From assembly GCA_014238595.1 (NCBI GenBank), contig JABAAV010000003.1, forward strand, positions 1 through 48,828: a stretch of DNA of 48,828 nucleotides, given 5' to 3'. The notes beneath the pieces were generated by a model that worked only from the letters and a program-made list of their open reading frames with translations, was not told the DNA's origin and searched no databases. Every line of letters begins with the position of its first letter. The stretch's first letter is position 1. The stretch comes from Myxococcales bacterium. GTDB taxonomy: Bacteria > Myxococcota_A > Polyangia > Haliangiales > J016. Position numbers and translations under genes: made by a program. Positions 9,846 through 44,181 of the stretch are shown piece by piece.

Positions 9846-10853
9846 ATGCTTGTTCTTGGATTAGAAAGCTCATGTGACGAAACAGCAGCAGCTGTTGTGA
9901 GGGATGGAAAAGATGTTCTTTCTGATGTGGTTTTTTCGCAAGATCAGATTCATCAAGACTATGGTGGCATTGTTCCTGAGCTGGCTTCACGAGAACATAT
10001 TAGTCAAGTGATTCCAGTTTTAGCTCAAGCATTAGAAACTGCGAATGTGTCATGGGATGATATTGATGGCATTGCTGTTACTTGTGGTCCAGGGTTGATC
10101 GGTGCTTTGTTTGTTGGGGTTCAAACCGCCAAAGCCATTGCTTATGCTCGGAAAATTCCTTTTGTTGGTGTCAATCATCTTCATGGTCATATTGCTGCGG
10201 TGTTTTTGGATCGAGAAACGCCTGATCCATCTTTTCCTCATCTTGCATTGCTTGTTTCAGGGGGACATACAGAAATCGTTTTAGTTAAATCAATGACCTC
10301 CATGGAACGACTTGGCGTGACTCGAGACGATGCAGCAGGAGAAGCCTTTGATAAAGTCGCCAAAATGCTAGGTCTTGGTTATCCTGGAGGTGCAAAAATC
10401 GATAAGCTCGCTCAACAAGGTGCATTGGGACATTTTTCAATGCCTCGTTTGATGACAGGTGAAAAAACAGGGTATGATTTTTCATTTAGTGGTATTAAAA
10501 CGGCGGTATTACGTATTATTCAAGAGCAAGAATCTTTGAGTGATACCGATATTCAAAATTTAGCGGCTGCATTTCAAGAATCTGTTGTTGAAGTGTTGGT
10601 TCGTAAGATTTCTAAAGCCGTCAAAACCTCTATGATTGATACAGTACAACTTTGTGGTGGTGTTGCAGCGAACAGTCGTTTGCGTTATGTCTTAGAAACG
10701 ACTGGAAAAGAGCAGGGATTTTCTGTTTTTATTCCTCCGTTGTCATATTGTACGGATAATGCGGCGATGATTGCGGCTGCGGGGTATCATCGTTTTCAAG
10801 ATGGCATAGAAGATCCATGGGATTTGTCGGCATCTACGCGAATGTCTTTTTAA
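9846..10853 (+). CDS. tsaD: tRNA N6-adenosine threonylcarbamoyltransferase TsaD
   Basis: MLVLGLESSCDETAAAVV, VNHLHGHI, LLVSGGHTE and GGVAANSRLR are canonical Kae1/TsaD motifs. Confidence 0.95.
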   Translation: MLVLGLESSCDETAAAVVRDGKDVLSDVVFSQDQIHQDYGGIVPELASREHISQVIPVLAQALETANVSWDDIDGIAVTCGPGLIGALFVGVQTAKAIAYARKIPFVGVNHLHGHIAAVFLDRETPDPSFPHLALLVSGGHTEIVLVKSMTSMERLGVTRDDAAGEAFDKVAKMLGLGYPGGAKIDKLAQQGALGHFSMPRLMTGEKTGYDFSFSGIKTAVLRIIQEQESLSDTDIQNLAAAFQESVVEVLVRKISKAVKTSMIDTVQLCGGVAANSRLRYVLETTGKEQGFSVFIPPLSYCTDNAAMIAAAGYHRFQDGIEDPWDLSASTRMSF

Positions 10854-10893
10854 AAAACACAATAATTTCAATTAGTTATACTGTTTTAAAACG

Positions 10894-11739
10894 ATGAACA
10901 CAACAACACATTACCCTGATGTTCGTACTGTGATGAAACGTTATGGGCTTTCAACAAAGGCATCATGGGGGCAGTGTTTTTTAATTGCCGAATCGGTGTT
11001 TGCTGCACTTGTGAACGCCACGGTATTGGATAACAGCGATAAAGTGATTGAGATTGGCGCAGGTGCTGGTTCATTGACAATGCGATTGGCAGATCACACA
11101 CAATCGTTGTTGGCCATTGAGCGAGACAGAGAATGGATTCCTGTTCTTAATGATCTGTTTAATGATCAATCACATGTTGAAATTATTGAAGGCAACGCAC
11201 TCACGTTTGATTATAACGCCGAAGCTCAAAAGCACGGATCACCACTCATTATTTGTGGCAATTTACCTTATCAAATTGCGGGACCGATTTTAATGCTATT
11301 GTTTTCACAACGACAAGCATGGAAACGTTTGGTCGTGATGGTGCAACATGAAATGGCACATCGATTGGTGGCACATCCTTCAACAAAGGCCTATGGCGCG
11401 TTATCTGTTTTGACACAAACCTATGCCAAGACCAGCATGGTGATGTCCCGCATATCTCCAGGCGCTTTTGTACCACAACCTAAAGTTGATTCCTCAATTG
11501 TGATGTTTGAACCATTACACGATTGTGCCATTTCATCGATACAGGAAGATCATTTTCGTAACGTCGTGATGGCTTCATTTGCACAACGAAGAAAAACATT
11601 ACGCAACTCATTACAATCAGCATTTGATCGTCATGCGATTGACCATGCATTAGATAGAAGTTCAATCGATGGATCCCGTCGAGGAGAAACATTGTCTATT
11701 GAAGAATTTGTTTCTCTGTCACAGGCCTTGCGTCGTTAA
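10894..11739 (+). CDS. rsmA: 16S rRNA (adenine1518/1519-N6)-dimethyltransferase
   Basis: GQCFLIAESV, VIEIGAGAGSLT SAM motif, GNLPYQI, and FAQRRKTLRNSL C-terminal region. Confidence 0.9.
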   Translation: MNTTTHYPDVRTVMKRYGLSTKASWGQCFLIAESVFAALVNATVLDNSDKVIEIGAGAGSLTMRLADHTQSLLAIERDREWIPVLNDLFNDQSHVEIIEGNALTFDYNAEAQKHGSPLIICGNLPYQIAGPILMLLFSQRQAWKRLVVMVQHEMAHRLVAHPSTKAYGALSVLTQTYAKTSMVMSRISPGAFVPQPKVDSSIVMFEPLHDCAISSIQEDHFRNVVMASFAQRRKTLRNSLQSAFDRHAIDHALDRSSIDGSRRGETLSIEEFVSLSQALRR

Positions 11740-11764
11740 ACGGTTCAGATTCATCGTAACGCAG

Positions 11765-11810
11765 CAATAAAAAACGGGGAGCCTTGGTAATGGCTCCCCG
11801 TCATTATTCT
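11765..11810. terminator. Intrinsic terminator between the convergent rsmA and lipoprotein genes. Strong on the minus strand, possibly bidirectional.
   Basis: 10-bp GC-rich stem ACGGGGAGCC (11774-11783) / GGCTCCCCGT (11792-11801) with loop TTGGTAAT. On the minus strand the stem is followed by TTTTTTATT. On the plus strand it is followed by CATTATTCT, a weaker tract. Confidence 0.75.
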
Positions 11811-11840
11811 AAATCGAGGATTACGACACTGAGGGTTTCA

Positions 11841-12812
11841 TTACGGACAATATTGATCAGTATAACTTCCGAGATCACAATTTGTCAGGTATCTGTTCAG
11901 AAAGAAATAATCACTGTCGTTCTCTATGGAATCTTCTATGGAAGTCAAGGCTGGTATTGAAAAATCTGTCAGTTCATCGTTGTAACTGATCTTGATGTAA
12001 CCACCCAGAGTGGTTAAGAGGGGTAGTGAAAATTCTGTCAGTGCATCATCGTCAGTAATGTATAAACTATGACCTATAGTAGTTAAAGCGGGCAATGAAA
12101 CTTCTGTCAATGCATCACTATAACTGATCCATAGGGAACCATCCATGGTGGTTAAGACGGGTAATGAAATATGCCTCAATACTCTATTTGCTGTAATCGA
12201 TACAACACCACCGACGCTTTTTAAAGCGGGTAGTGAAATCTCTGTCATACTGTTAAATCTGAATATGAAGACTCCTTCTATGGAAGTCAAAGCGGGTAGT
12301 AAAAGGTTTGTCAAACGGTAGTTTTCATATAAAAACACCTCACCAGTAATCTGCTCAAGCAATGGAAGATTAATCACCGTTATAGCAGAACTATCGAACT
12401 GAAGAGATCCCCAGAGTACAGTACAATCACGCACCGAATCCAATTGCGCTTGAGAGGTTACAATCCCAGTACAGTCAATGATCGGTTCTTGTGAACTTGG
12501 TCTTTTTGGTAGCGGAAGACAAAATACATCTCCAGAGTCCTCTGTGACGCCATCCCAAGAAGATACTCCACGACATAGTAGATCAGGGTCGGGATCATTT
12601 GAAGGGAGCTCTGGCCTTACTGGATCTGGCGTTGACCCTGTTTCATTAGACGGTGTTGATGCAGACTCTTCATCTACTGTTTCAGAAGATGGTCTTGATG
12701 CAGAGTTTTCATCTATTGCTTCAGAAGAGGGTGTTAATGCAGACTCTTTATCATGACAACCGAAGAGACCAAGACTAAGAATCAAAGAGAGAGAGATTGT
12801 TAATGTTTTCAT
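11841..12812 (-). CDS. Repeat (receptor-L-domain-like / LRR beta-helix) lipoprotein, long paralog with a Ser/Glu/Pro-rich linker
   Basis: Signal peptide plus lipobox MKTLTISLSLILSLGLFGC. Low-complexity linker (SASRPSSETVDEESASTPSNE...). Then RDCTVLWGSLQF and about 22-24-aa repeats of the form L(T/S)x(I/V)SLPxLTx(I/V)xGxLxIxxNxxL. The C-terminus is NCDLGSYTDQYCP. Confidence 0.7.
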   Translation of the reverse strand: MKTLTISLSLILSLGLFGCHDKESALTPSSEAIDENSASRPSSETVDEESASTPSNETGSTPDPVRPELPSNDPDPDLLCRGVSSWDGVTEDSGDVFCLPLPKRPSSQEPIIDCTGIVTSQAQLDSVRDCTVLWGSLQFDSSAITVINLPLLEQITGEVFLYENYRLTNLLLPALTSIEGVFIFRFNSMTEISLPALKSVGGVVSITANRVLRHISLPVLTTMDGSLWISYSDALTEVSLPALTTIGHSLYITDDDALTEFSLPLLTTLGGYIKISYNDELTDFSIPALTSIEDSIENDSDYFFLNRYLTNCDLGSYTDQYCP

Positions 12813-12911: not shown

Positions 12912-13526
12912 TTACGGACAATATTGATCAGTATAACTTCCCAGATCACAATTTTGCAGCTTGCTGTTAGAAGAGATATGAATGCTATCGGGATAAATGC
13001 TATCGGGGCCGAAGTCTTCTACCGAAGTCAAGTTTGGCATTGAAACATCTGTCAGTGCACCGTTGTAAGTGATAGCAATGTAATCCACAGAGGTTAAAAC
13101 GGGTAGTGAAATTTCTCTCAGTGCATTAACCTCATTAATGTATAAAGTACTACCTATAGTATTCAAAACGGGTAATGAAAGTTCTGTTAATGACTCGTGA
13201 TGATCAATCTCTAGGCCAGCATACATGTAAGTCAAAGCGGGTAGTAAAATTTTAGTCAGACGGGAGTTATCTTGTAAAAACACCCTACCAGTAATCTCTT
13301 CAAGCAATGGAAGATTAATCACCGTTACATCAGAATCATTAAACCGAATAGATCCCCAGATTACGGTACAATCACGTACTGAATCCAATTGAGCTTGAGA
13401 GGTTACATCACCAACGCATTCCATGTTTGGTTCTTGTGAAGTTGGTGTTGATGCAGATTCTTCATCGCCACAACCGAAGAGACCAAGACTAAGAATCAAA
13501 GAGAGAGAGATTGTTAAAGTTTTCAT
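12912..13526 (-). CDS. Repeat (receptor-L-domain-like / LRR beta-helix) lipoprotein, short paralog
   Basis: Signal peptide MKTLTISLSLILSLGLFGC is identical to the neighbouring gene. RDCTVIWGSIRFNDSDVTVINLPLLEEITGRVFLQDNSRLTKILLPAL... ends in ..IHISSNSKLQNCDLGSYTDQYCP. The 5' and 3' ends are near-identical to the neighbour at the DNA level. Confidence 0.7.
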   Translation of the reverse strand: MKTLTISLSLILSLGLFGCGDEESASTPTSQEPNMECVGDVTSQAQLDSVRDCTVIWGSIRFNDSDVTVINLPLLEEITGRVFLQDNSRLTKILLPALTYMYAGLEIDHHESLTELSLPVLNTIGSTLYINEVNALREISLPVLTSVDYIAITYNGALTDVSMPNLTSVEDFGPDSIYPDSIHISSNSKLQNCDLGSYTDQYCP

Positions 13527-27825: not shown

Positions 27826-28875
27826 TCAATTACCCTCTGAACATTCGTCATATTTTTCAGCAATGTTTGCCAGACATGCGCTGCTTTCTGATGGTCTATC
27901 ATCGAAAAAGTCCTCATCGAAAATGTCACTGTCATCATTACCGATTGCCGCAACTCTACAACGTTGTAAAGGATGTGGTGCGATGTTGAGTGTGTCTAAC
28001 CAATCTTCAATATCACAAGAGGATAATGATCCGTTATATTCAATTCCCACAACAGGATCTTGCATAACAACCTCTTCCCCAAAATCCTCGATTAAGCGAT
28101 TCCATCCCTCTGTATTGTTTCCAACATCAGTCAGTGAATTGAGATCCAAAGATTGTAATTCATCGTTTAGAAAAACATGGAGAAGTACCCCAATTGAGGT
28201 TAACGCATCAAGAGAGAATGTGTTTAATTGACTGTTGAGATCCAGAGTTACTCCTCCAAGAACTGTTTCCAACTTTGGAAAATCAATCGATTGGAGTGTT
28301 TCGGTTTGTGTAATCTCTAGAGTGCCTTCAATTGCAGTCAGGACAGGCAATGTCATTGATGAAAAGTTTTTAGTTGCTGCAATTGACAGATTACCTCCTA
28401 TATTAAGAAGAGCGGGGAATTTTGAAAAATCAGTCATCTCAAGCGTTGTATCTGTAGAGAGATATCCTTCAATTTTTAAGTCTTCTCCAATGGTTGTTAG
28501 CTGAGGAAATCCTGAAAAATCAGTGAGATTTTTCGTATCTTGGATAATAAGGCTACCACTAATATCTGTGAGGCAAGGAACATCGTGGACTGTATTTTCA
28601 ATAAAAAGATCGCCTTCAATCCTCGACAATGTTTTCAATTCGAATATCTCGAGGGGTAAAAAATCATCGTCTTTAAGAAACAAACTACCATTATAGACTT
28701 GATCGGGATTACAGGTCTCTGTAGGCGTAGGACCCTCTTCCCCAGGAATGATATCAGGATCAATAGACGAAGAAGTAGCCGTAGGCTCTGAAGCTACAGA
28801 GACAGGCTCGTGGTTGCACCCAAGACTGACACAAAAAAACAGAAGCATAGAACTAATATAGTGGCGCGGCATCAT
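27826..28875 (-). CDS. Repeat (receptor-L-domain-like / LRR beta-helix) lipoprotein, distant paralog
   Basis: Signal peptide MMPRHYISSMLLFFCVSLGC. About 24-aa repeats follow (LTDISGSLIIQDTKNLTDFSGFPQLTTIGEDLKIEG..., LPVLTAIEGTLEITQTETLQSIDFPKLETVLGGVTLDLNSQL...). Cys-containing acidic C-terminus. AAGGAG RBS 8 nt upstream. Confidence 0.65.
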   Translation of the reverse strand: MMPRHYISSMLLFFCVSLGCNHEPVSVASEPTATSSSIDPDIIPGEEGPTPTETCNPDQVYNGSLFLKDDDFLPLEIFELKTLSRIEGDLFIENTVHDVPCLTDISGSLIIQDTKNLTDFSGFPQLTTIGEDLKIEGYLSTDTTLEMTDFSKFPALLNIGGNLSIAATKNFSSMTLPVLTAIEGTLEITQTETLQSIDFPKLETVLGGVTLDLNSQLNTFSLDALTSIGVLLHVFLNDELQSLDLNSLTDVGNNTEGWNRLIEDFGEEVVMQDPVVGIEYNGSLSSCDIEDWLDTLNIAPHPLQRCRVAAIGNDDSDIFDEDFFDDRPSESSACLANIAEKYDECSEGN

Positions 28876-33335: not shown

Positions 33336-34427
33336 ATGATAGTTCAATCCATGCAGCAAGTTTTAGATCATAAAGGAGCTCTTTGTCAGGATGCAAAGAT
33401 GCCTGATTTATCCGATAAGGAGCTGCTTCGTTTGTTTGATACGATGCTTCATGTTCGTGTTATGGACGAACGGATGCTTCGTTTACAACGGCAAGGACGA
33501 TTAGGGTTTTACATGACATCTCTTGGAGAAGAAGCAACCCATTTAGCGGTTCAGCCTTTAACACAGGAGGATTGTCTGTTTCCTTCATACCGTGAAACCG
33601 GTGCTTTATTTTGGCGCGGATTGACTAATGAAGATTATATCAATCAACTTTATGGAAATCGAAAAGATCCAATCAAAGGACGACAGATGCCCGTGCATCA
33701 TTCGTCAAAAGAGAAAAACATTGTTTCGATAAGTTCACCCGTAGGGACACAGATTCCTCAAGCCGTTGGTGCTGCTATGGCAGGTCGTAAGCAAGGTCGT
33801 GCTGCCATGGTTTTTTTTGGTGAAGGAACCTCATCTACGGGATCTTTTCATGTTGGCTGTAATTTTGCCGCTGTCATGAAGGCCCCTGTGGTTTTTATAT
33901 GCCGTAATAATGGTTGGGCAATTTCCGTACCCAAACATAAGCAAACTGCATCAGAAACATTTGCTCAAAAAGCAATTGCCTATGGGATGCCAGGTATTTT
34001 AGTTGATGGTAACGATATCTTGGCCGTGGTTGCCGCAGCACAAGAAGCAGTCGCTCATGCCAAAGCAGGCAAAGGCCCAACATTAATAGAGCTTAAAACA
34101 TATCGCATGGGAGGTCATTCAAGTTCAGATGATCCTTCAGTCTATCGAGATGAAGCGGAAGTAACTGAATGGGAATCAGCAGATCCCGTCAATCGATTTC
34201 ATGCGTATCTAAAAAACAAAAAACTTTTAACAGATGATCAAGAAACCAAGATGCGTGATGCGCATGTTAAAAATATAACAGAAGCACAAAACATTGCAGA
34301 CAAAGAGCCTCCACCTGAGGTTGAAACATTGTTTGACGATGTGTTTGAAGAAATGCCATGGCATCTTAAAGAACAACAAGCGTGGTTATTGCAACAAAAA
34401 CGAACGAAATCGCCGCATGGTCATTGA
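33336..34427 (+). CDS. Branched-chain 2-oxoacid dehydrogenase E1 alpha subunit
   Basis: RLQRQGRLGFY, the TPP motif FGEGTSSTGSFHVGCNFAAV...FICRNNGWAIS (GEG form, as in BCKDH E1a), and YRMGGHSSSDDPSVYR. Confidence 0.85.
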   Translation: MIVQSMQQVLDHKGALCQDAKMPDLSDKELLRLFDTMLHVRVMDERMLRLQRQGRLGFYMTSLGEEATHLAVQPLTQEDCLFPSYRETGALFWRGLTNEDYINQLYGNRKDPIKGRQMPVHHSSKEKNIVSISSPVGTQIPQAVGAAMAGRKQGRAAMVFFGEGTSSTGSFHVGCNFAAVMKAPVVFICRNNGWAISVPKHKQTASETFAQKAIAYGMPGILVDGNDILAVVAAAQEAVAHAKAGKGPTLIELKTYRMGGHSSSDDPSVYRDEAEVTEWESADPVNRFHAYLKNKKLLTDDQETKMRDAHVKNITEAQNIADKEPPPEVETLFDDVFEEMPWHLKEQQAWLLQQKRTKSPHGH

Positions 34428-35428: not shown

Positions 35429-36616
35429 ATGTCTTTTTCGTTTCGTTTACCCGATATTGGTGAAGGTGTTGTAGAGGGCGAAGTTGTTGCTTGGAAAGTT
35501 TCCGAAGGGGACTTGATTGCACTTGATGAGCCGATGGTAGAAATTCAAACAGACAAAGCTTCTGTAGAAATACCATCACCACGACAAGGAACCATTGCTA
35601 AAATCATGTTTCAAGAGGGTGAAATTTGTCCTGTGGGTGATGTGTTGGTGGTCATTGATGTTGAAGGTGAAGAAACATCACAAGAGACGCAATCACAAGA
35701 AAGTACACCGCAGCAGAAAACACCTGCATCTCCCAAAACATCTAAATCATCAAATTCAAAAAGTCATGGTAAATCTTCTGTATTGGCACCACCTTCAGTG
35801 CGAAAATTAGCACGAGAAAAAGGTGTTGATTTGGAATCCATTGCGATCAAAGGAAAACGAATTTCTGCCGAGGATGTTCTTGAAGCCGCAAGAGCAACAA
35901 CAGGTACTTCAAATTCGGAAAGTCAACGTGAAGAGCGTATTCCACTAAAAGGTGTCCGTGCAAAGATTGCTGAAAACATGAGTCAGTCAGTGTCAACAGC
36001 CGCACATTTTACTTATGTTGAAGAACTGGATGTTACAACATTAGTTGAGTTGCGTCAGCAAGCCAAAAAGAACATGGAAAATCTAACGTATTTACCATTC
36101 TTTATCAAAGCCGTTGTTGCGGGACTAAAAAAACATCCAGAACTTAATGCGACATTAGATGAACAATCTAAAGAGATTGTTCATAAATTTTATTATCATA
36201 TTGGTATTGCGATACAAGGTACAAACGGATTGGTGGTGGTTGTGATTCGTGATGCTGATAAAAAATCGATTAAAGAATTGTCTCACGAGATTGTGAGATT
36301 GTCTGACGAAGTGCAAACAAATAAAATCAAACGCGATGATATGGTTGGATCAACCTTCACTATTTCTTCTTTGGGTCAACGTGGTGGTGTCTTGGCAACG
36401 CCGATTATTAATTTTCCTGAAGTTGGTATTTTAGGTGTTCACCAGCTCAAAGAAAAACCTGCTGTTTATCAAGGCGAGATTGTTCCACGTTGGTTGATGA
36501 ATCTTTCATTATCGTTGGATCATCGTATTGTGGATGGTTGGAATGGCGCTGAGTTTATGAATACAGTCAAAACAGCACTTGAAGCACCTGATCCTATGTT
36601 TACGGATTTAATGTAG
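35429..36616 (+). CDS. Dihydrolipoamide acyltransferase E2 (single lipoyl domain)
   Basis: Lipoyl motif EIQTDKASVEI, Ser/Pro/Lys-rich linker, subunit-binding PSVRKLAREKGVDL, and catalytic DHRIVDG. Confidence 0.9.
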   Translation: MSFSFRLPDIGEGVVEGEVVAWKVSEGDLIALDEPMVEIQTDKASVEIPSPRQGTIAKIMFQEGEICPVGDVLVVIDVEGEETSQETQSQESTPQQKTPASPKTSKSSNSKSHGKSSVLAPPSVRKLAREKGVDLESIAIKGKRISAEDVLEAARATTGTSNSESQREERIPLKGVRAKIAENMSQSVSTAAHFTYVEELDVTTLVELRQQAKKNMENLTYLPFFIKAVVAGLKKHPELNATLDEQSKEIVHKFYYHIGIAIQGTNGLVVVVIRDADKKSIKELSHEIVRLSDEVQTNKIKRDDMVGSTFTISSLGQRGGVLATPIINFPEVGILGVHQLKEKPAVYQGEIVPRWLMNLSLSLDHRIVDGWNGAEFMNTVKTALEAPDPMFTDLM

Positions 36617-37686
36617 TGTACGCACTGGATCAGTATCTTGCTTGTGATGCGAAAGTAAAAGCAACCTCACTGTTTTCTCTTCTTTCCGAAGACGGAATAT
36701 TGCAAGAGGGGTTTGATTTAGATCAAGAATCATTGCTCCGAATGTATCGTGGTATGCGTAGGCTTCGTATTCTTGATGAGCGCATGCTTATTCTGCAACG
36801 GCAAGGACGTATTGGATTTTACGGAGAAGCCCGTGGACAGGAAGCGGCAGTGATTGGAACAGCATCGGCGCTTTGTGAAAAAGATTGGATTGTTCCTGCA
36901 CTGCGTGAAGCTGGTGTTGGATTATATTGTGGGATGCCACTGTCGATTTATATTAATCAAATCTTTGGTAATGCCGCGGATGTTTCAAAAGGGCGGCAAA
37001 TGCCATGTCATCCTTGTGACAAAGATCACAATTATGTTGTGATGTCTTCATGTGTTGCAAATCAACTACCGCATGCTGTCGGTATTGCTTGGGCAATGAA
37101 ACACAACAAGGACACTGATAGATTATGTGTAAGTTACATGGGTGATGGAGGAACGAGCGAAGGAAGTTTTCATATTGGACTAAATTTCGCACAGACAATG
37201 TCGGTTCCTGTATTGTTCATCTGTCAAAACAATGGATGGGCTATTTCAACACCTACAAACAAACAAACCATATCAGAGACCTATGCAATCAAAGGGTTGG
37301 CCTATGACATGGAATCGTTGCGTGTTGATGGTAATGATTTATTAGCAGTATCAACATTAACAAAATATGCCGCTGAAAAAATACGTAAAGATCAAAAACC
37401 TATTTTTATTGAAGCGGTCACTTATCGTGTGAGTGCTCATTCAAGTTCGGATGATCCATCACGATATCGAGATGAATCGGTAACGAAAGAATGGATCGAG
37501 AAAAGAGATCCTATTGATCGAATTCGAAAACTTTTGTTTGAAAAAAAATGGATGACAGAAGACGAAGATCAAAAAATAACACACCATTTTGAATCTGAAA
37601 TTAATCAAGAGATCAAAAAAGCTGAAGCAATTGAATTGCCAGATAAAAAAACGCTAACGCAAGATGTTTTTGAAGAAGAACAATAA
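36616..37686 (+). CDS. Second, diverged 2-oxoacid dehydrogenase E1 alpha paralog
   Basis: ILQRQGRIGFY, the TPP motif MGDGGTSEGSFHIGLNFAQT...FICQNNGWAIS (GDG form), and YRVSAHSSSDDPSRYR. Its GTG start shares one nucleotide with the E2 stop codon. No second E1 beta gene follows. Confidence 0.8.
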   Translation: MYALDQYLACDAKVKATSLFSLLSEDGILQEGFDLDQESLLRMYRGMRRLRILDERMLILQRQGRIGFYGEARGQEAAVIGTASALCEKDWIVPALREAGVGLYCGMPLSIYINQIFGNAADVSKGRQMPCHPCDKDHNYVVMSSCVANQLPHAVGIAWAMKHNKDTDRLCVSYMGDGGTSEGSFHIGLNFAQTMSVPVLFICQNNGWAISTPTNKQTISETYAIKGLAYDMESLRVDGNDLLAVSTLTKYAAEKIRKDQKPIFIEAVTYRVSAHSSSDDPSRYRDESVTKEWIEKRDPIDRIRKLLFEKKWMTEDEDQKITHHFESEINQEIKKAEAIELPDKKTLTQDVFEEEQ

Positions 37687-37723: not shown

Positions 37724-39130
37724 ATGCAAGAAAAAAAAGTAGATGTCGCTGTTCTTGGAGCAGGTCCAGGGGGTTATGTTTCTGCAATTCGTTTGGGACA
37801 AAAAGGATTATCTACGATGATTGTAGATAAGGCTTTTATTGGTGGTACTTGTCTCAATACAGGATGCATTCCGTCAAAATCATTAATCCACGCAGCAAGT
37901 TTTGTTTCAGTTTCTACACATGCAAAATCGATAGGCATTACATTCGATACACCAACAATCGATATGAAATCGATACAAACATGGAAACAAGGTATCGTAT
38001 CGCGGCTAACGAAAGGTGTTGAAGGATTATTAAAAGGCAATCACGTTGATGTTGTTAACGGTCATGCCTCGTTTATTTCAAGCGATACAGATCATCATGA
38101 ATTACTGGTTGATGAGACCACCAAAATTATAGCGAAACATGTCGTGATTGCGACAGGCTCTACAGCAAGAACACTGCCCGAATTCCCTGTTGATCAAACA
38201 ACGATTCTTGATTCTACTGGATTGTTAAATCTCGAAACAATTCCCCAAAGTTTAATCATTTTAGGTGGTGGTTATATTGGGCTTGAATTGGGCATCGTGT
38301 ATGCCAAACTTGGTACAGCGGTCACGATTGTTGAAACAATGCCACGGCTTTTGTCAGCAATGGATCCTGATACTGTGGCTGTGGTTTCAAAAACATTACG
38401 ACGGCTTGGTGTTGTTGTTCACTGCAACACCGTTGTCAAAAATCACACAAAACATTCAACATCTATTTCATTAGAGATACAAACAGATCAAAAAAACCAA
38501 ACGATTGAAGCTGAAAAATTATTTGTTTCAATCGGACGAAAACCAAACACTGAAGGTCTTGGATTAGATAAGATTGATTTAAACACAGATGAACATGGCT
38601 TTATTCCTGTCAATGAAACACTGCAAACAAACAAACCAGGTATCTATGCGATTGGTGATGTTACATCTGGTCCCATGCTTGCACATCGTGCATCCAATCA
38701 AGGTGAAATTGTTGCTGATGTCATTTGTGGCGATACTTCCGCAATCGATCCACGTGTTATCCCTGCTGTTGTTTTTACCGATCCTGAAATTTCATCAGTC
38801 GGCATGACCGAATCTGAATTAAAAGAGGCGGGATGTTCTGTTCTTGTTGGAAAATTCCCTTTTGCAGCATCGGGTCGAGCAATGAGTGTCAATAATACAG
38901 ACGGATTTGTTAAAGTGATTGCTGACAGTGAGACAAAAGCCATTCTTGGTGTTCATATTGTTGGTGCGCATGCTTCAGAAATGATTGCTGAAGCAGGACT
39001 TGTTATTGAAATGGGTGCAACATTAGAAGATATTGTTGGTACTGTTCATGCACATCCATCATTAAGTGAAGCGTTTGTAGAAGCAGCACATGTTGCTTTG
39101 GGTCAAGCCCTTCATATTATGGCAAAATAA
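37724..39130 (+). CDS. lpdA: Dihydrolipoyl dehydrogenase E3
   Basis: GAGPGGY FAD motif, redox-active GGTCLNTGCIPSK, NAD-site GGGYIGLE, and C-terminal HAHPSLSE. Confidence 0.9.
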   Translation: MQEKKVDVAVLGAGPGGYVSAIRLGQKGLSTMIVDKAFIGGTCLNTGCIPSKSLIHAASFVSVSTHAKSIGITFDTPTIDMKSIQTWKQGIVSRLTKGVEGLLKGNHVDVVNGHASFISSDTDHHELLVDETTKIIAKHVVIATGSTARTLPEFPVDQTTILDSTGLLNLETIPQSLIILGGGYIGLELGIVYAKLGTAVTIVETMPRLLSAMDPDTVAVVSKTLRRLGVVVHCNTVVKNHTKHSTSISLEIQTDQKNQTIEAEKLFVSIGRKPNTEGLGLDKIDLNTDEHGFIPVNETLQTNKPGIYAIGDVTSGPMLAHRASNQGEIVADVICGDTSAIDPRVIPAVVFTDPEISSVGMTESELKEAGCSVLVGKFPFAASGRAMSVNNTDGFVKVIADSETKAILGVHIVGAHASEMIAEAGLVIEMGATLEDIVGTVHAHPSLSEAFVEAAHVALGQALHIMAK

Positions 39131-39140
39131 TACAACGGTT

Positions 39141-39785
39141 GTGCAATCTACATTGTCTCATACAACCATTGTTTCTGATTTAGGTCGGTTAGATTACAAG
39201 ACAACATGGAAAAAACAACTCGAGTTGTTGTCAGACTGTCAAAAAACGAAACAAGAATATTTACTGATGGTGGAACATCCACCTGTCATTACGTTAGGGA
39301 GACGACGAGATAGTATCTCCAATGTTCTTAATGACGATAATATTGATGTCGTTTCTGTAGAACGAGGTGGTGATGTTACCTATCACGGGTTTGGGCAATT
39401 AGTTGTTTATCCAATTTTGTATTTGCGAGAAGATGAACGTGACTTACATCGATATATGCGAAATTTAGAGCAAGCCATTATTGATGTGTTGATGTATTAT
39501 GACATCAAAGGGGATCGTATTTCTGGACAAACAGGTGTTTGGGTTGAAGACAGAAAAATTGCGTCAATCGGTATTGCATGTCGTCGATGGGTGACCTTTC
39601 ATGGATTAGCCTTGAATGTTACGACAGATTTAAAATCCTTTCTAAAAATCAATCCCTGTGGTTTTGATGCATCAGTCATGACCAGTATGAGTAACGAAAG
39701 CTCTCAAGATCAAATCGATATAGAACGCATTAAACCTCAAATGCTTCAAACATTGGGTCATGTGTTGAAACGTAAATTTATATGA
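39141..39785 (+). CDS. lipB: Octanoyltransferase LipB
   Basis: LGRLDYKTTW, EHPPVITLGRR, RGGDVTYHGFGQLV, the active-site Cys in INPCGF, and KI.SIG. The longest ORF, starting at 39090, overlaps lpdA by 41 nt. An in-frame GTG at 39141 is preferred but unverified. Confidence 0.8.
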   Translation: MQSTLSHTTIVSDLGRLDYKTTWKKQLELLSDCQKTKQEYLLMVEHPPVITLGRRRDSISNVLNDDNIDVVSVERGGDVTYHGFGQLVVYPILYLREDERDLHRYMRNLEQAIIDVLMYYDIKGDRISGQTGVWVEDRKIASIGIACRRWVTFHGLALNVTTDLKSFLKINPCGFDASVMTSMSNESSQDQIDIERIKPQMLQTLGHVLKRKFI

Positions 39786-39836: not shown

Positions 39837-41105
39837 TTATGAAACACGACGAATCGATGCACCCAAGGCCGCAAGTTTTTTCTCAAAGCGTTCATAGCCA
39901 CGATCGATATGATAGACACGTTGTACATGCGTTGGTTGTTGTGCGATTAACCCAGCAAGAATCATTGAAGCACCGGCACGTAAATCTGTTGCCATAACGG
40001 TTGTGCCTGATAAAGGTGTTTTGCCACTGATTACGGCAGTGCTTCCCTGTACGGAAATGGATGCGCCCATGCGATTTAATTCTGCAACATGCATAAACCG
40101 ATTCTCAAAAATATGTTCATTAATCGTACTTTGACCATGAGTTTGTGTCGCAAGAACCATAAACTGTGCTTGCATATCAGTAGGAAAGCCTGGATAGGGA
40201 TGCGTTGTTATCGAAAACGGTGAAAAATTCCCATCACTCTGAACACGAAATGTTTTGTGATTATTCTCTTTGCTGGCTGTTATCTTGACACCTGCGGAAC
40301 GCAGTTTTGCCGTGATGACTTCAAGATGTTTGGGGTTAATATCATGAAGCGTAACATCACCGCCTGTAACAGCAGCCGCGATCATAAATGTTCCGGCTTC
40401 AATACGATCAGGGATAATGCTATGGGATACTGCGGAAAGATTATTGTTTCCTTCAATACGAAGATGTGATGTTCCGACACCTTGAATAGAAGCACCCATT
40501 TTAATCAGGACTTCTGCAAGTTCTTCGACTTCAGGTTCACAAGCAGCATTTTCAATCCATGTTGTTCCTTCAGTACAGACAGCTGCCATTAATATATTTT
40601 CTGTTCCTGTTACAGAAGGAAGATCAAAAACAATGCGGGCACCTTGAAGTTGTTTTGCAGAGGCATCAACATAACCATGATCAAGCGATACGGTTGCTCC
40701 CATAGCCGTTAAGGCTTCGAGATGTTGATCAATAGGACGAGAACCAATAGAACAGCCTCCTGGCAATGAAACCCGTGCATGTCCTCGTCGTGCAACAAGA
40801 GGGCCTAAAACCAAAATACTCGCACGCATAGTTTTGACCAGATCATAGGGTGCAATTGATATGTTATTCCATGTTTCTGGAGAATGTATTGTAATTTTTT
40901 TATCGCAACGATCGATCTGACAACCAAGTTGTTCCAATAGTTGGCACATTGTAGCGACGTCTTTGAGATCAGGCATATTATCAAAGACAAAGGTCCCAGA
41001 AGCCAACAATGTAGCGGCTAACAATGGCAACGATGAATTTTTTGAACCGCTAATAAAGACATCTCCGTTTAGTGGTTTTCCTCCCTCGACAATAATGCTA
41101 TCCAT
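39837..41105 (-). CDS. murA: UDP-N-acetylglucosamine 1-carboxyvinyltransferase
   Basis: [34 protein letters not shown], the active-site loop [13 protein letters not shown], and FPTDMQAQF. Confidence 0.95.
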
Positions 41106-41137: not shown

Positions 41138-43195
41138 ATGACTTCTCGTTTTTCTAAAATATTACAACAATATTCCGATTGGGTTGTTGCTGTACTCGTT
41201 ATTTTCATTGTTGGAATAATGATTGTTCCTTTGCCTACGGCTTTGGTTGATTTGTTGTTGTCATTCAATATGGCGTTGGCGGTACTTTTATTGATGGTAT
41301 CTCTCTATGTTGGTAATGCGATGCAAATTGCTTCGTTTCCTTCTATTTTACTCATTACCACATTGTTTCGATTAGGTCTTAATGTTTCTACCACAAGATT
41401 AATCTTACGCGATGCTGATGCCGGTGAAATTGTTTTAGCATTTGGTAATTTTGTCGCAGCAGGCAACATTGTTGTTGGCGTGGTTGTTTTTGCGATTTTA
41501 ACGTTAATTCAATTTATCGTTATTGCCAAAGGATCTGAGCGTGTGGCGGAAGTTGCGGCACGTTTTTCATTAGATGCCTTACCAGGCAAGCAAATGGCCA
41601 TTGATGCCGATGTTCGGTCAGGGTATCTCGATCAAGAAACTGCACGACAGCAACGGACGGTCTTAGAACAAGAATCAAAATTGTATGGATCCATGGATGG
41701 TGCCATGAAGTTTGTCAAAGGCGATGCCATTGCTGGAATATTAATTACAATCATTAATATTATAGGAGGCCTGACGATTGGCATGGTCTCTCAAGGCATG
41801 GATTTAACAGAAGCCAGTCGTCTTTATACCGTGTTAACTATTGGCGATGGCTTGGTCTCTCAAATTCCTGCACTCTTAATTTCATTGGCGGCAGGCCTTG
41901 TCGTGACACGAGTTTCTATAGGGGAGGAACATGTCGGTCACGATATTGTCACGCAATTATTTGTTCACCCTAAAGCGATGATTGCAACAACGGTATTTTT
42001 GTTGGTATTAGCATTTGTTCCAGGACTTCCATTAGTTCCCTTTTTGGTTCTTGGATTAGGTGCATGTTTCTTATCCTTTAAGTTAGTTAAACAACAAAAC
42101 CAAATACAACAAGACAATGTGGACACAAAAGCATCGTCAGTAGGCATTCCACCTATTGTTATAGAATTTGATACGACGCTTCAACAAGCATTTCATGCCC
42201 ATGAAAAAACAGATGTGTTTTTCCGTGAAACACTCAATCAGATTAGAGAGAATCTTTATCAAACGTGTGGAATCAATGTTCCTTCGATGTATGTCCGTCC
42301 CCTTGATCATACTGAATTCTTTTCAAATGACGATTCATTAGCAGAAGGTAAGTTTGTTCTTTATTTCTTTGAACAAATTGTGATGGTCGGCAGTCTTTCA
42401 ACAACACAGTGTTTGGTTAATGTCTCTGCAAAAACACTTGTATCCAAAGGTGTTGATGCCACTCAAGCAATTCATCCTGTTTTGGGTAATGAAATAAGTT
42501 CTATAAATACTAATCAGAGAGTTCAATGTGAGCGGTTAGGGTTTCTAGTCTATTCTCCTTTAGATGTCTTTGTCATGATATTGGGAGATAAAATAAAAAC
42601 ACATGCTTCAGAATTTGTTGGTATTGAAGAAACTAAACAATTAATTGGACAGTTGGAGCAAACACATCCGACATTGGTGAATGAAGTTGTGCCTCAGTTG
42701 GTTTCACTATCTTTGTTATCTGATATTTTACGTAAGCTGGTTCAAGAAGATGTTTCAATTCGTGATCTTCGCTTAATTATTCAGGCATTAGCCGATGCCA
42801 TTTCAGATAAAGATCAAAAGAAAGATCCAGTTGTATTAACAGAGCAGATTCGGATTGCATTGCGTCGTCAAATTACATTGAAGTATGCCATCAATGGCAT
42901 TTTAGATGTCTGGATGTTAGATCCATTACTCGAAGACACAATACGTGAATCCTTGCACAAAACTGAAAAAGGTGTGTTTTTGGCACTCGATCCTCAAATG
43001 TCACAAGATATTCTGAAAGCCTTTCGACAGGCCTTGGAACAACATGCCTCGGCAGTGATTGTAACGTCCTTGGACATTCGTCATTATGTTCGACGGTTAA
43101 TTGAAATTGAACTTCCTTTAATAGCCGTTCTTTCTTTTTCAGAGCTTCTCCCTGATATTCAATTAAATCCTCAAGGGAAAATTTCTGTTGATTAA
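41138..43195 (+). CDS. sctV: FHIPEP-family type III secretion export-gate protein, injectisome (SctV/YscV/InvA) type
   Basis: 685 aa. LLITTLFRLGLNVSTTRLIL, DADAGEIV, KGSERVAEVAARFSLDALPGKQMAIDAD and GSMDGAMKFVKGDAIAG match the SctV forms. The flagellar FlhA forms are LLFTTLLRL, KGAGRIAEV and GASKFVRGD. Confidence 0.85.
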   Translation: MTSRFSKILQQYSDWVVAVLVIFIVGIMIVPLPTALVDLLLSFNMALAVLLLMVSLYVGNAMQIASFPSILLITTLFRLGLNVSTTRLILRDADAGEIVLAFGNFVAAGNIVVGVVVFAILTLIQFIVIAKGSERVAEVAARFSLDALPGKQMAIDADVRSGYLDQETARQQRTVLEQESKLYGSMDGAMKFVKGDAIAGILITIINIIGGLTIGMVSQGMDLTEASRLYTVLTIGDGLVSQIPALLISLAAGLVVTRVSIGEEHVGHDIVTQLFVHPKAMIATTVFLLVLAFVPGLPLVPFLVLGLGACFLSFKLVKQQNQIQQDNVDTKASSVGIPPIVIEFDTTLQQAFHAHEKTDVFFRETLNQIRENLYQTCGINVPSMYVRPLDHTEFFSNDDSLAEGKFVLYFFEQIVMVGSLSTTQCLVNVSAKTLVSKGVDATQAIHPVLGNEISSINTNQRVQCERLGFLVYSPLDVFVMILGDKIKTHASEFVGIEETKQLIGQLEQTHPTLVNEVVPQLVSLSLLSDILRKLVQEDVSIRDLRLIIQALADAISDKDQKKDPVVLTEQIRIALRRQITLKYAINGILDVWMLDPLLEDTIRESLHKTEKGVFLALDPQMSQDILKAFRQALEQHASAVIVTSLDIRHYVRRLIEIELPLIAVLSFSELLPDIQLNPQGKISVD

Positions 43196-44181
43196 CCTTC
43201 TACAATAGCTGTGATGATGTGACGGTTGGATTTTAGCCAATCAACATAATAGTCTGTCTCTTGTTGTTTTTGTAATTCATTGCGTTCAATCAAGTCTTCC
43301 ACTGCTTCTTTGATTAATCCAATTTTTTTAGAAGGAGGAAGATTAAACTCTTTCATAATGCTTGCGCCGAATCCTTTGGGCAATAATGCAGGTTGTTCAT
43401 CCTGTTCTTTTAAAGATTTAATTCGTTGTTCTAGATCATGAATACCTTGTAACAATGTTTGCCGTTTTCCTGGTATTTTAGATGTAATATCGGCACGGGA
43501 TAGGTTGAGCAAATCTTTACAGTAAGGTTCCATATCTTTCGCAAAACGTCGAACAGCAGAGTCTGTCCATGCACGACTGTACTGTGCACATCTTAAATGT
43601 TCTGCAATGAGAAAACGTATCTTTGTTTTTTCTTGTGGTTCAAAAGGAAGTCGTTTTGAAATTTTATCAAACATTTTAGCACCGACTAATGCATGTCCAC
43701 GAAAATGTACGGAACCATTAGGCATAAATGTTCTTGTAGGTACTTTCCCAATATCATGAAGCAGTGCAGCCCATCGCATTGTTACATCGGGAACGGTTTG
43801 TTTGACGACCAATACAGTATGTTCCCAAACATCTTTATGTTTACGCTGACCTTCTTGACGTAAAGCAACGGTTGCTTCTAATTCAGGCAGAAGATATTTG
43901 ATAACTCCAATACGTTGGAGCCATTGTAATGCTTGATCAACATGTTTTCCAGGAAGACATTGTTCAAAACTTGTTTTACAAGCTTGTGGTGCAATCTCTT
44001 TAATTACATCTATTTCTTCACAACAGGATTGAGTTAAATTGAGTCCAGGCCATGCACCTGTCTGAGAAATGTTTTGTGCAATATGAAAAATAAACAACGG
44101 ATCATTTTGAACACAGGATCGTGTGTTGTTTGCGAGATGTAAATCATCGGCAGCGTAAAGCAAATCTTGAACGCTGTTCAT
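43192..44181 (-). CDS. HD-domain protein related to the body/tail of CCA-adding enzymes or poly(A) polymerases, without the nucleotidyltransferase head
   Basis: LQWLQRIGVIKYLLPEL (RNA-binding-region-like), HKDVWEHT...AALLHDIGK (HD motif) and HFRGHALVGA. There is no GGxVRD/DxD head motif at the N-terminus. Confidence 0.55.
   Translation of the reverse strand: MNSVQDLLYAADDLHLANNTRSCVQNDPLFIFHIAQNISQTGAWPGLNLTQSCCEEIDVIKEIAPQACKTSFEQCLPGKHVDQALQWLQRIGVIKYLLPELEATVALRQEGQRKHKDVWEHTVLVVKQTVPDVTMRWAALLHDIGKVPTRTFMPNGSVHFRGHALVGAKMFDKISKRLPFEPQEKTKIRFLIAEHLRCAQYSRAWTDSAVRRFAKDMEPYCKDLLNLSRADITSKIPGKRQTLLQGIHDLEQRIKSLKEQDEQPALLPKGFGASIMKEFNLPPSKKIGLIKEAVEDLIERNELQKQQETDYYVDWLKSNRHIITAIVEG

Follow-up and report, generated by a model that had tools for sequence, protein, structure and literature searches.

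What can a complete type III secretion export gate be doing when its gene stands alone among housekeeping genes? The question is raised by sctV, which lies in a stretch of 48,828 nucleotides (the window) from a Myxococcales bacterium (GTDB lineage Bacteria; Myxococcota_A; Polyangia; Haliangiales; J016; assembly GCA_014238595.1, contig JABAAV010000003.1, positions 1 to 48,828 of the forward strand). A preliminary description, made from the sequence alone, took the gene for an intact orphan of the injectisome kind and offered three explanations: a type III secretion system (T3SS) dispersed as in some obligate intracellular lineages, a relic of a lost system, or a re-purposed membrane export component. 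The present analysis favours, with a probability of roughly 0.5, a reading in which sctV belongs to a dispersed, needle-less, Myxococcota-type T3SS and has been relocated on the chromosome, the system being similar to that called T3SS* in myxobacteria. The estimate stands no higher because the partner genes were not seen. On this reading, SctV would act as the large subunit whose nonameric ring surrounds the SctRST(U) export channel and which ties protein export to the proton-motive force. The gene, passed on vertically, would have moved long ago into a housekeeping neighbourhood and been maintained there, transcribed alone from a promoter inside or beside murA, while sctRSTU, sctN, sctI/J and others would be carried at other loci. 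The presence of partner genes elsewhere, nonamer assembly and a part in protein export are what we infer. The preliminary description would count as refuted if a complete T3SS or flagellar regulon elsewhere made the gene no more than a relocated part of an ordinary system; by that criterion this is the most likely outcome, and the system here would be the atypical myxobacterial one.

The product of the window gene is SctV, not FlhA. The Pfam FHIPEP family (PF00771) matches it at 679.9 bits, with protein residues 24-674 covering profile positions 1-656 of 657 and hence the full-length domain, and the NCBIfam equivalog model for SctV (TIGR01399) is passed narrowly, at 698.4 bits against a cutoff of 692.25. 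The equivalog model for FlhA (TIGR01398), by contrast, fails at 575.2 against a cutoff of 772.1, as does the Chlamydia FlhA-like model NF004571 (257 against 670), and in a sequence search of the PDB the best score went to YscV (7ALW, 494 bits), ahead of SsaV (407) and FlhA (358). Relative to E. coli FlhA, five residues are deleted before ADAGE, a deletion common to the window protein, AscV, chlamydial SctV and Myxococcus-type SctV; in addition, the window protein reads GSERVAEV and GAMKFVKGD where E. coli FlhA reads GAGRIAEV and GASKFVRGD. The preliminary description is borne out on each of these points, since all four of the motifs that it quoted are present in their SctV variants, the 685-residue open reading frame (ORF) spans PF00771 from end to end, and the eight or so hydrophobic N-terminal segments that it predicted are found by hydropathy and accompanied by a helical N-domain in an AlphaFold model.

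The isolation of the gene is equally plain, with no T3SS or flagellar core gene in at least 41 kb upstream or in 10 kb downstream of sctV. Window ORFs of at least 150 residues, judged by Pfam or by the public gene table, were all housekeeping or metabolic or without a Pfam domain, and none was another T3SS or flagellar core gene; nor does the window hold an ORF of the FlhB/SctU family. Hidden Markov models (HMMs) for SctU, SctT, SctS, SctR, SctQ, SctN and SctW were seeded from the Pfam-verified asc cluster of Aeromonas and then iterated across all fetched loci. They gave zero matches in the window or in L001, which comprises sctV with 10 kb on either side on a 57.6-kb scaffold and extends about 4.4 kb past the 3' end of the window; these models do recover their targets in Ysc-type, Desulfovibrio-type, Bryobacter, chlamydial and Archangium/Corallococcus loci. 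Neither flhB nor fliPQR lies near sctV, and no gatekeeper gene sctW, sctU, chaperone gene or needle gene adjoins it. Both the claimed absence of other T3SS and flagellar genes nearby and the described layout, with murA divergent at 32 bp and an HD-domain gene convergent with overlapping stops, are therefore upheld, the former by Pfam on the window ORFs and by the HMMs on the window and L001. From its orientation relative to these neighbours, sctV would be monocistronic. The spacer between sctV and murA is without an obvious Shine-Dalgarno sequence and could not fit two promoters, a consensus scan of its 32 bp found no sigma-70-like site, and promoter/terminator and Rfam scans of the window returned nothing informative. 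The same protein is also encoded on an ENA scaffold (BUSC20-1_SAMN14422896 scaffold_63).

The closest relatives of the window protein form a small clade that is linked to murA. When 90%-identity clusters of a collection of 5.8 billion proteins were searched, the immediate family consisted of only eight clusters (P0001-P0008), whose identity to the window protein is 49-54%; profile scores were 1125-1306 bits for these and at most 1038 bits for the rest, and the profile search returned no clade members beyond the eight. A scan of GTDB representative genomes with the SctV protein yielded relatives whose identity did not exceed 46% and nothing from the murA-linked clade, and a scan of JGI metagenomes with the clade alignment gave no new member among the matches listed, the degenerate patterns proving to be generic FHIPEP motifs. 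The preliminary description had proposed a phylogeny of FHIPEP proteins, and when 196 SctVs were placed in a neighbour-joining tree with E. coli FlhA as the single outgroup, the clade sequences formed one group, a separate clade inside a broad radiation of Myxococcota-type SctVs. All members with readable contigs share the neighbourhood (PDH)-lipB-(hisG)-murA-(AAA)-sctV-HD-(murI), in which PDH stands for pyruvate dehydrogenase: murA lies at most 1.3 kb upstream of sctV in loci L002, L003, L005, L087 and L088, an HD homologue lies downstream in the same five, and lipB lies upstream in L002, L003, L005 and L088.

The divergence of sctV across this clade is close to that of the genes around it. 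Between the window and the other clade members, identity is 51-55% for SctV, 59-61% for murA, 51-55% for lipB and 50-56% for HD; among the four high-GC members, the corresponding values are 64-78%, 75-77%, 61-72% and 68-77%. Because SctV diverges much as its housekeeping neighbours do, the comparison indicates that sctV is old, has descended vertically and has long been held by purifying selection; a recent arrival or a long-dead relic would not show this pattern. Myxococcota usually have a GC content of 65-72%. The window is at 40% (range 0.36-0.44) and L002 at 46.5%, and L003, L005, L087 and L088 are at 66-71%; gene order around sctV is kept across this large shift in GC. As to the host, the best named relatives of the window YidC are from Haliangium ochraceum, Haliangium sp. 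and Kofleriaceae at 37-41% identity, with proteins from metagenome-assembled genomes (MAGs) reaching 47%, and the nearest SctVs belong to Myxococcota, Polyangia or "Deltaproteobacteria" MAGs. We conclude, from YidC as the one marker, that the host is probably a deep low-GC Myxococcota lineage near Haliangiales/Polyangia.

In the four high-GC members, a ClpX/HslU-like AAA gene encoding 380-389 residues (AAA_2 plus ClpB_D2-small) stands divergent and directly upstream of sctV; the window and L002 lack it, and there murA abuts sctV. The AAA gene was considered as a partner of SctV and dropped, as it is not an SctN-type ATPase and is missing from these two loci.

The fold of an export gate appears to be retained. 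The AlphaFold model drew on 65 homologues and reaches a mean predicted local distance difference test (pLDDT) score of 84.9, and in this predicted model the C-terminal domain gives target-normalised Foldseek template-modelling (TM) scores of 0.82-0.89 against CdsV, 0.82-0.86 against YscV, 0.80-0.81 against EscV and 0.77-0.84 against FlhA, at 22-31% sequence identity to the solved C-domains across aligned residues. As a reference for conservation, 124 columns with conservation of 95% or more were taken from 44 SctVs with an adjoining T3SS core gene. The window protein keeps 111 of the 124, as does L002, and the other clade members keep 113-119; E. coli FlhA keeps 95. Ten conserved charged residues of the membrane region, needed for energising export according to FlhA mutagenesis work (D45, R85, R94, R147, R154, D158, R185, K203, D208 and D249 in FlhA numbering), are all kept in the window protein. 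Across the eight clade members, nine of them are kept throughout, and D45 is kept in seven, the shorter P0008 having a gap.

Two positions in the cytoplasmic domain depart from this picture. The column of FlhA W465 holds tryptophan in 44/44 T3SS-linked SctVs and in E. coli FlhA; in the eight clade members it reads S, A, S, R, A, A, S and A. The column of FlhA H491, histidine in the same 44/44 and in E. coli FlhA, reads I, T, H, A, T, R, S and A. Both positions lie at most ten residues from FlhA D456, F459 and T490, which we take to form the chaperone-binding dimple between subdomains SD1 and SD2. The first two dimple residues have already been studied, in PDB entries 6AI1 (D456V) and 6AI2 (F459A). 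Judged solely from their position, W465 and H491 may have a functional role in this region.

Isolation of the kind seen here turns out to be widespread. From GTDB genomes and JGI metagenomes, 167 SctV loci (L002-L172) were compiled among the matches listed, and 92/167 of these carry no core T3SS gene on the DNA examined; with the set restricted to loci flanked by 8 kb or more on each side, the count is 29/64. No core T3SS gene lies within 10 kb of most of the Myxococcota-type SctVs fetched, among them loci on contigs of 0.4-2.4 Mb; lone SctVs occur often in Polyangia, Sandaracinaceae and Haliangium-like MAGs. In one closed metagenomic genome of myxobacterial size, 9,074,070 nt (L172, ERZ25074506), sctV (10001-12076) is likewise alone in a housekeeping setting, beside an Omp85 gene and near dnaX-ybaB-recR. 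Export-gate genes were expected by the preliminary description to be embedded in T3SS operons; the window gene is indeed without T3SS neighbours, but its isolation is not peculiar to it. Cluster-embedded copies do occur in the phylum, in Archangium and Corallococcus, and these match the "Myxo" non-flagellar T3SS (NF-T3SS). No conserved non-T3SS partner was found beside the lone SctVs, where the search returned only subgroup-specific neighbours and was blurred by spurious overlapping ORFs in high-GC DNA.

Lone and linked SctVs differ in the cytoplasmic domain. W465 and/or H491 are lost in 30/92 lone and 2/75 T3SS-linked loci among the matches listed (Fisher p = 2.5e-7, a test that ignores phylogeny); at loci with flanks of at least 8 kb, the figures are 9/29 lone and 1/35 linked, again among the matches listed and with phylogeny ignored. 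The cluster-embedded Myxo SctVs L012, L022, L029 and L031 keep both tryptophan and histidine. For pairs whose membrane domains are 65-75% identical, cytoplasmic-domain identity is 65% between T3SS-linked SctVs, 51% between other lone SctVs and 44% within the murA-linked clade; at 75-85% membrane-domain identity, the values are 76%, 64% and 60%. Between the window protein and its own clade, the membrane domain is 65-71% identical and the cytoplasmic domain only 39-42%. These alignments suggest that in lone SctVs the cytoplasmic domain evolves faster, and that preferential loss of the tryptophan and histidine is strongly enriched among them.

Precedent for a dispersed system exists within the phylum. 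In the Bradymonadales strain YN101, sctV lies at 851,913, sctU-T-S-R at 3,532,728-3,536,127 and sctN at 5,986,337; in V1718, sctV lies at 1,072,813, sctN at 1,786,376 and sctI at 1,789,634; and in SEH01, sctV at 561 kb and sctN at 41 kb share a scaffold, with sctR/S on another (PMC11509652 supplementary file 4). Multiple copies of sctV and sctR are also mentioned for Polyangia (PMC11509652). The "Myxo" NF-T3SS was described as being without secretin and needle (Abby & Rocha 2012; PMC3459982), and the system of M. xanthus is now named T3SS* (PMC10433427). The dispersed reading is thus supported by the SctV identity, the conserved residues, the synteny, the Myxococcota host, the Bradymonadales precedent and the commonness of lone sctV. 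The remodelled cytoplasmic domain, with its faster evolution, is compatible with a system lacking gatekeeper, needle and translocon substrates, although it would fit a gate that has lost its T3SS partners equally well.

Several observations, however, weigh against a dispersed system. No partner gene for this lineage was seen in the 41 kb upstream or 10 kb downstream of sctV, and the margin by which TIGR01399 is passed is only 6 bits. The murA-linked clade has lost W465 and H491 in the SD2/SD1 region, and its cytoplasmic domain is over-diverged given the conservation of the membrane domain. In a sibling assembly, sctV carries a TAG codon, and sctV shows an excess of nonsynonymous differences, 5/13 against 4/27 in neighbouring genes, which is not significant (Fisher p = 0.12). 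Finally, T3SS*/T3SS(2) has been placed mainly in Myxococcia or Myxococcaceae (bioRxiv 10.64898/2026.07.10.737566; PMC11821767), and the window lineage groups with Polyangia/Haliangiales, outside those taxa. What both surveys scored was the share of M. xanthus homologues rather than single genes (bioRxiv 10.64898/2026.07.10.737566; PMC11821767).

The alternative that survives best is a re-purposed gate, in which SctV would be kept without SctRSTU and SctN for a role outside type III secretion, such as ion flux, another form of translocation or signalling by way of a remodelled cytoplasmic domain, in this lineage and perhaps in many non-Myxococcia Myxococcota. A strongly conserved membrane domain with its charged residues in place, set against the divergent cytoplasmic domain, is consistent with such a role, as are the clade-wide loss of the otherwise invariant tryptophan and histidine, the skew of that loss toward lone loci among the matches listed (with phylogeny ignored), and the long, stable residence of the gene among housekeeping genes. 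However, we know of no SctV or FlhA that works without the SctRST/FliPQR core. Surveys place the T3SS mainly in Myxococcia, yet lone SctVs are frequent in the Polyangia, Sandaracinaceae and Haliangium-like MAGs, which speaks for this alternative; what those surveys scored was homologue proportion, however, and not the absence of individual genes. In addition, Bradymonadales with a lone sctV still encode sctRSTU and sctN elsewhere, and both sctV and sctR copies occur in Polyangia (PMC11509652). Loss of the histidine is itself compatible with T3SS membership, since L017, a bradymonad-type Lujinxingiaceae MAG with a lone sctV, has also lost it. On balance, a re-purposed gate is somewhat unlikely. 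Its broadest form is doubtful to a greater degree: that the lone SctVs common in non-Myxococcia Myxococcota are partner-less genome-wide and would act as autonomous membrane machines, the ion-conducting module being kept and the ring remodelled for a function other than export.

It is also possible, but unlikely, that sctV is a dispensable remnant, functional in the ancestor and now under relaxed selection with decay just starting in the low-GC lineage. The sibling assembly (L091; ERZ23489589, SAMN14422898, scaffold_81), from the same project, differs from the window at 40 of 6,999 nt (0.57%), and there TAG replaces TCG at codon 333 (L091 3997-3999), so that the sctV frame is broken into two products, of 332 and 326 residues. 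The sibling protein has four further amino-acid changes, at residues 336, 445, 458 and 461. Synonymous and nonsynonymous differences number 8 and 5 in sctV, 10 and 0 in murA, and 23 and 4 in five neighbouring genes pooled. Decay would also be in keeping with the 111/124 conserved columns of the window and L002, the lowest in the clade, and with seven changes at positions at least 95% conserved where the window residue occurs in none of the other seven members (M148L, P414I, Q497E, R533K, E561K, R649H and Q668S). On the other side, the window frame is intact for 685 codons though a GC content of 40% lets stop codons arise easily, SctV divergence follows that of murA, lipB and HD with no gene-specific acceleration, the nonsynonymous excess is not significant, and the model is confidently folded. 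The TAG allele may moreover be a minority variant or the strain-specific loss of an accessory trait. The intact frame and the neighbour-like divergence argue against long-standing decay. The relic proposed by the preliminary description is accordingly disfavoured at the level of the clade, where SctV is as conserved as murA, lipB and HD across the syntenic genomes, and keeps some plausibility for the window species by virtue of the nonsense allele in the sibling.

A flagellar FlhA, or a flagellar-orphan FlhA of the Chlamydia kind working with flagellar export components, is highly improbable and was rejected: FHIPEP is common to both systems and the FlhA model still gives 575 bits, but that model and NF004571 fall short of their cutoffs while the SctV model passes, the motifs and the five-residue deletion are SctV-type, YscV and SsaV outscore FlhA in the PDB sequence search, there is no flhB, fliPQR or other flagellar context near sctV, and to our knowledge cultured Myxococcota are without flagella.

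Set beside known systems, the window SctV resembles each of them in part. It shares family, phylum and the broad SctV radiation with the Myxococcota T3SS*, and the sctV of Bradymonadales is likewise single and far from sctRSTU and sctN. However, it belongs to a separate murA-linked clade of eight clusters, its host, at 40% GC, lies near Haliangiales, where T3SS* has not been reported, it does not have the tryptophan and histidine kept by the cluster-embedded myxobacterial copies, and its partner genes are inferred. With the solved injectisome SctVs (YscV 7ALW/7QIJ, CdsV 6WA6, EscV 7OSL, SsaV 7AWA, InvA and MxiA) it has in common the full-length architecture and the SctV motifs, with C-domain TM-scores of 0.80-0.89 to CdsV, YscV and EscV; identity is just 22-31%, two residues invariant in those systems are replaced, and adjoining sctW, sctU, chaperone and needle genes are missing. 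Flagellar FlhA has a homologous FHIPEP membrane domain, the same charged residues and the same four-subdomain cytoplasmic fold, but the window protein misses the FlhA cutoff, has the deletion and motifs of SctV type, and stands outside any flagellar context.

The comparison with Chlamydia bears on the kind of dispersal that is proposed. In Chlamydia, which is non-flagellated, the T3SS genes are distributed among several loci (PMC3459982). Of the 11 chlamydial loci that were fetched, all have sctV (cdsV) beside sctU and ten also have it beside sctW (e.g. L025, L036, L052, L059, L068, L070, L071 and L084), sctU and sctW being about 0-2.4 kb from sctV, whereas the window gene is flanked by murA and the HD gene instead. 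A Chlamydia-type arrangement was rejected, since neither sctU nor sctW is beside the window sctV. Of the explanation by a dispersed T3SS as in obligate intracellular lineages, then, the dispersed system is favoured, on the Bradymonadales precedent, but the intracellular parallel is not, because a host that is myxobacterium-like by its YidC, and not obligate intracellular, makes the Myxococcota T3SS* the apt precedent.

The features of the locus are collected in Table 1. In order along the window, the larger ORFs include rpmH-rnpA-yidD-yidC-jag-mnmE, bioF/A/D, tsaD, rsmA, a Ser/Thr kinase gene, rnhB, an ABC/FecCD transporter, acyl-CoA dehydrogenases and RNase E/G, followed by pyruvate dehydrogenase E1/E2/E3, lipB, murA, sctV, HD, DUF3109, glyoxalase, thiolase and queC. 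The HD gene matches TIGR02692, the actinobacterial-type CCA-adding enzyme, only over positions 161-465 of 466, the C-terminal two-thirds, so that the nucleotidyltransferase head is missing. Three paralogues with a eukaryote-type Receptor L domain match weakly to moderately (E 2e-6 to 2e-11). Upstream of rpmH, 1.4 kb of AT-rich DNA (35.5% GC) holds no convincing gene and may be origin-proximal; DnaA-box matches near rpmH are not beyond chance, with 23 observed and 17.7 expected. Two separate E1 genes flank the E1-beta/E2 genes of the 2-oxoacid dehydrogenase cluster, and the E1 duplication is also present in the related loci L002 and L088.

Table 1. Features of the sctV locus (window positions unless a related locus is named).
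Feature	Position	Strand	Remarks
sctV	41138..43195	+	ATG-started ORF, 685 codons without interruption; apparently monocistronic; injectisome-type export gate, FHIPEP family
N-terminal membrane (FHIPEP) domain, residues 1-331	41138..42130	+	about 8 hydrophobic segments, conserved cytoplasmic loop
Flexible linker, residues ~327-338	42116..42151	+	pLDDT <50 at residues 327-335
C-terminal cytoplasmic ring domain (SD1-SD4 fold), residues ~339-685	42152..43192	+	pLDDT mostly >90
Codon 333 (TCG; TAG in sibling assembly)	42134-42136	+	linker
Codon 455 (Ser), column of FlhA W465	42500..42502	+	alignment
Codon 481 (Ile), column of FlhA H491	42578..42580	+	alignment
murA	39837-41105	-	TIGR01072 566 bits; divergent, upstream of sctV; syntenic neighbour kept across sctV clade
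murA-sctV divergent spacer, start codon to start codon	41106..41137		32 bp
lipB	39090..39785	+	Pfam LplA-B_cat; within conserved PDH-lipB-murA-sctV synteny block
HD-domain gene	43192-44181	-	Pfam HD; convergent, 4-bp overlap with sctV stop; clade-conserved neighbour
AAA gene, L003	5285-6454	-	AAA_2 + ClpB_D2-small
AAA gene, L005	8578-9726	-	AAA_2 + ClpB_D2-small
AAA gene, L087	8743-9885	-	AAA_2 + ClpB_D2-small
AAA gene, L088	8614-9765	-	AAA_2 + ClpB_D2-small
Receptor L domain paralogue	11841-12812	-	PF01030
Receptor L domain paralogue	12912-13526	-	PF01030
Receptor L domain paralogue	27826-28875	-	PF01030
AT-rich DNA upstream of rpmH	within 1-1600
rpmH	1442-1591
E1 gene	33336-34427	+	PF00676
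E1 gene	36616-37686	+	PF00676

Taken as a whole, the locus reveals a murA-linked, lone SctV clade with a remodelled cytoplasmic domain in a deep low-GC myxobacterial lineage. If this SctV is part of a scattered needle-less T3SS, such a system would extend to a deep low-GC myxobacterial lineage outside Myxococcia, and cluster-based detection would under-count T3SS in the phylum. The loss of residues in lone SctVs, together with their fast cytoplasmic domain, may provide a handle on the parts of the gate that depend on injectisome-specific partners. If, alternatively, partners are absent, the gene would encode the first T3SS export gate to function by itself, and it would bear on how the gate couples ion flow with transport.

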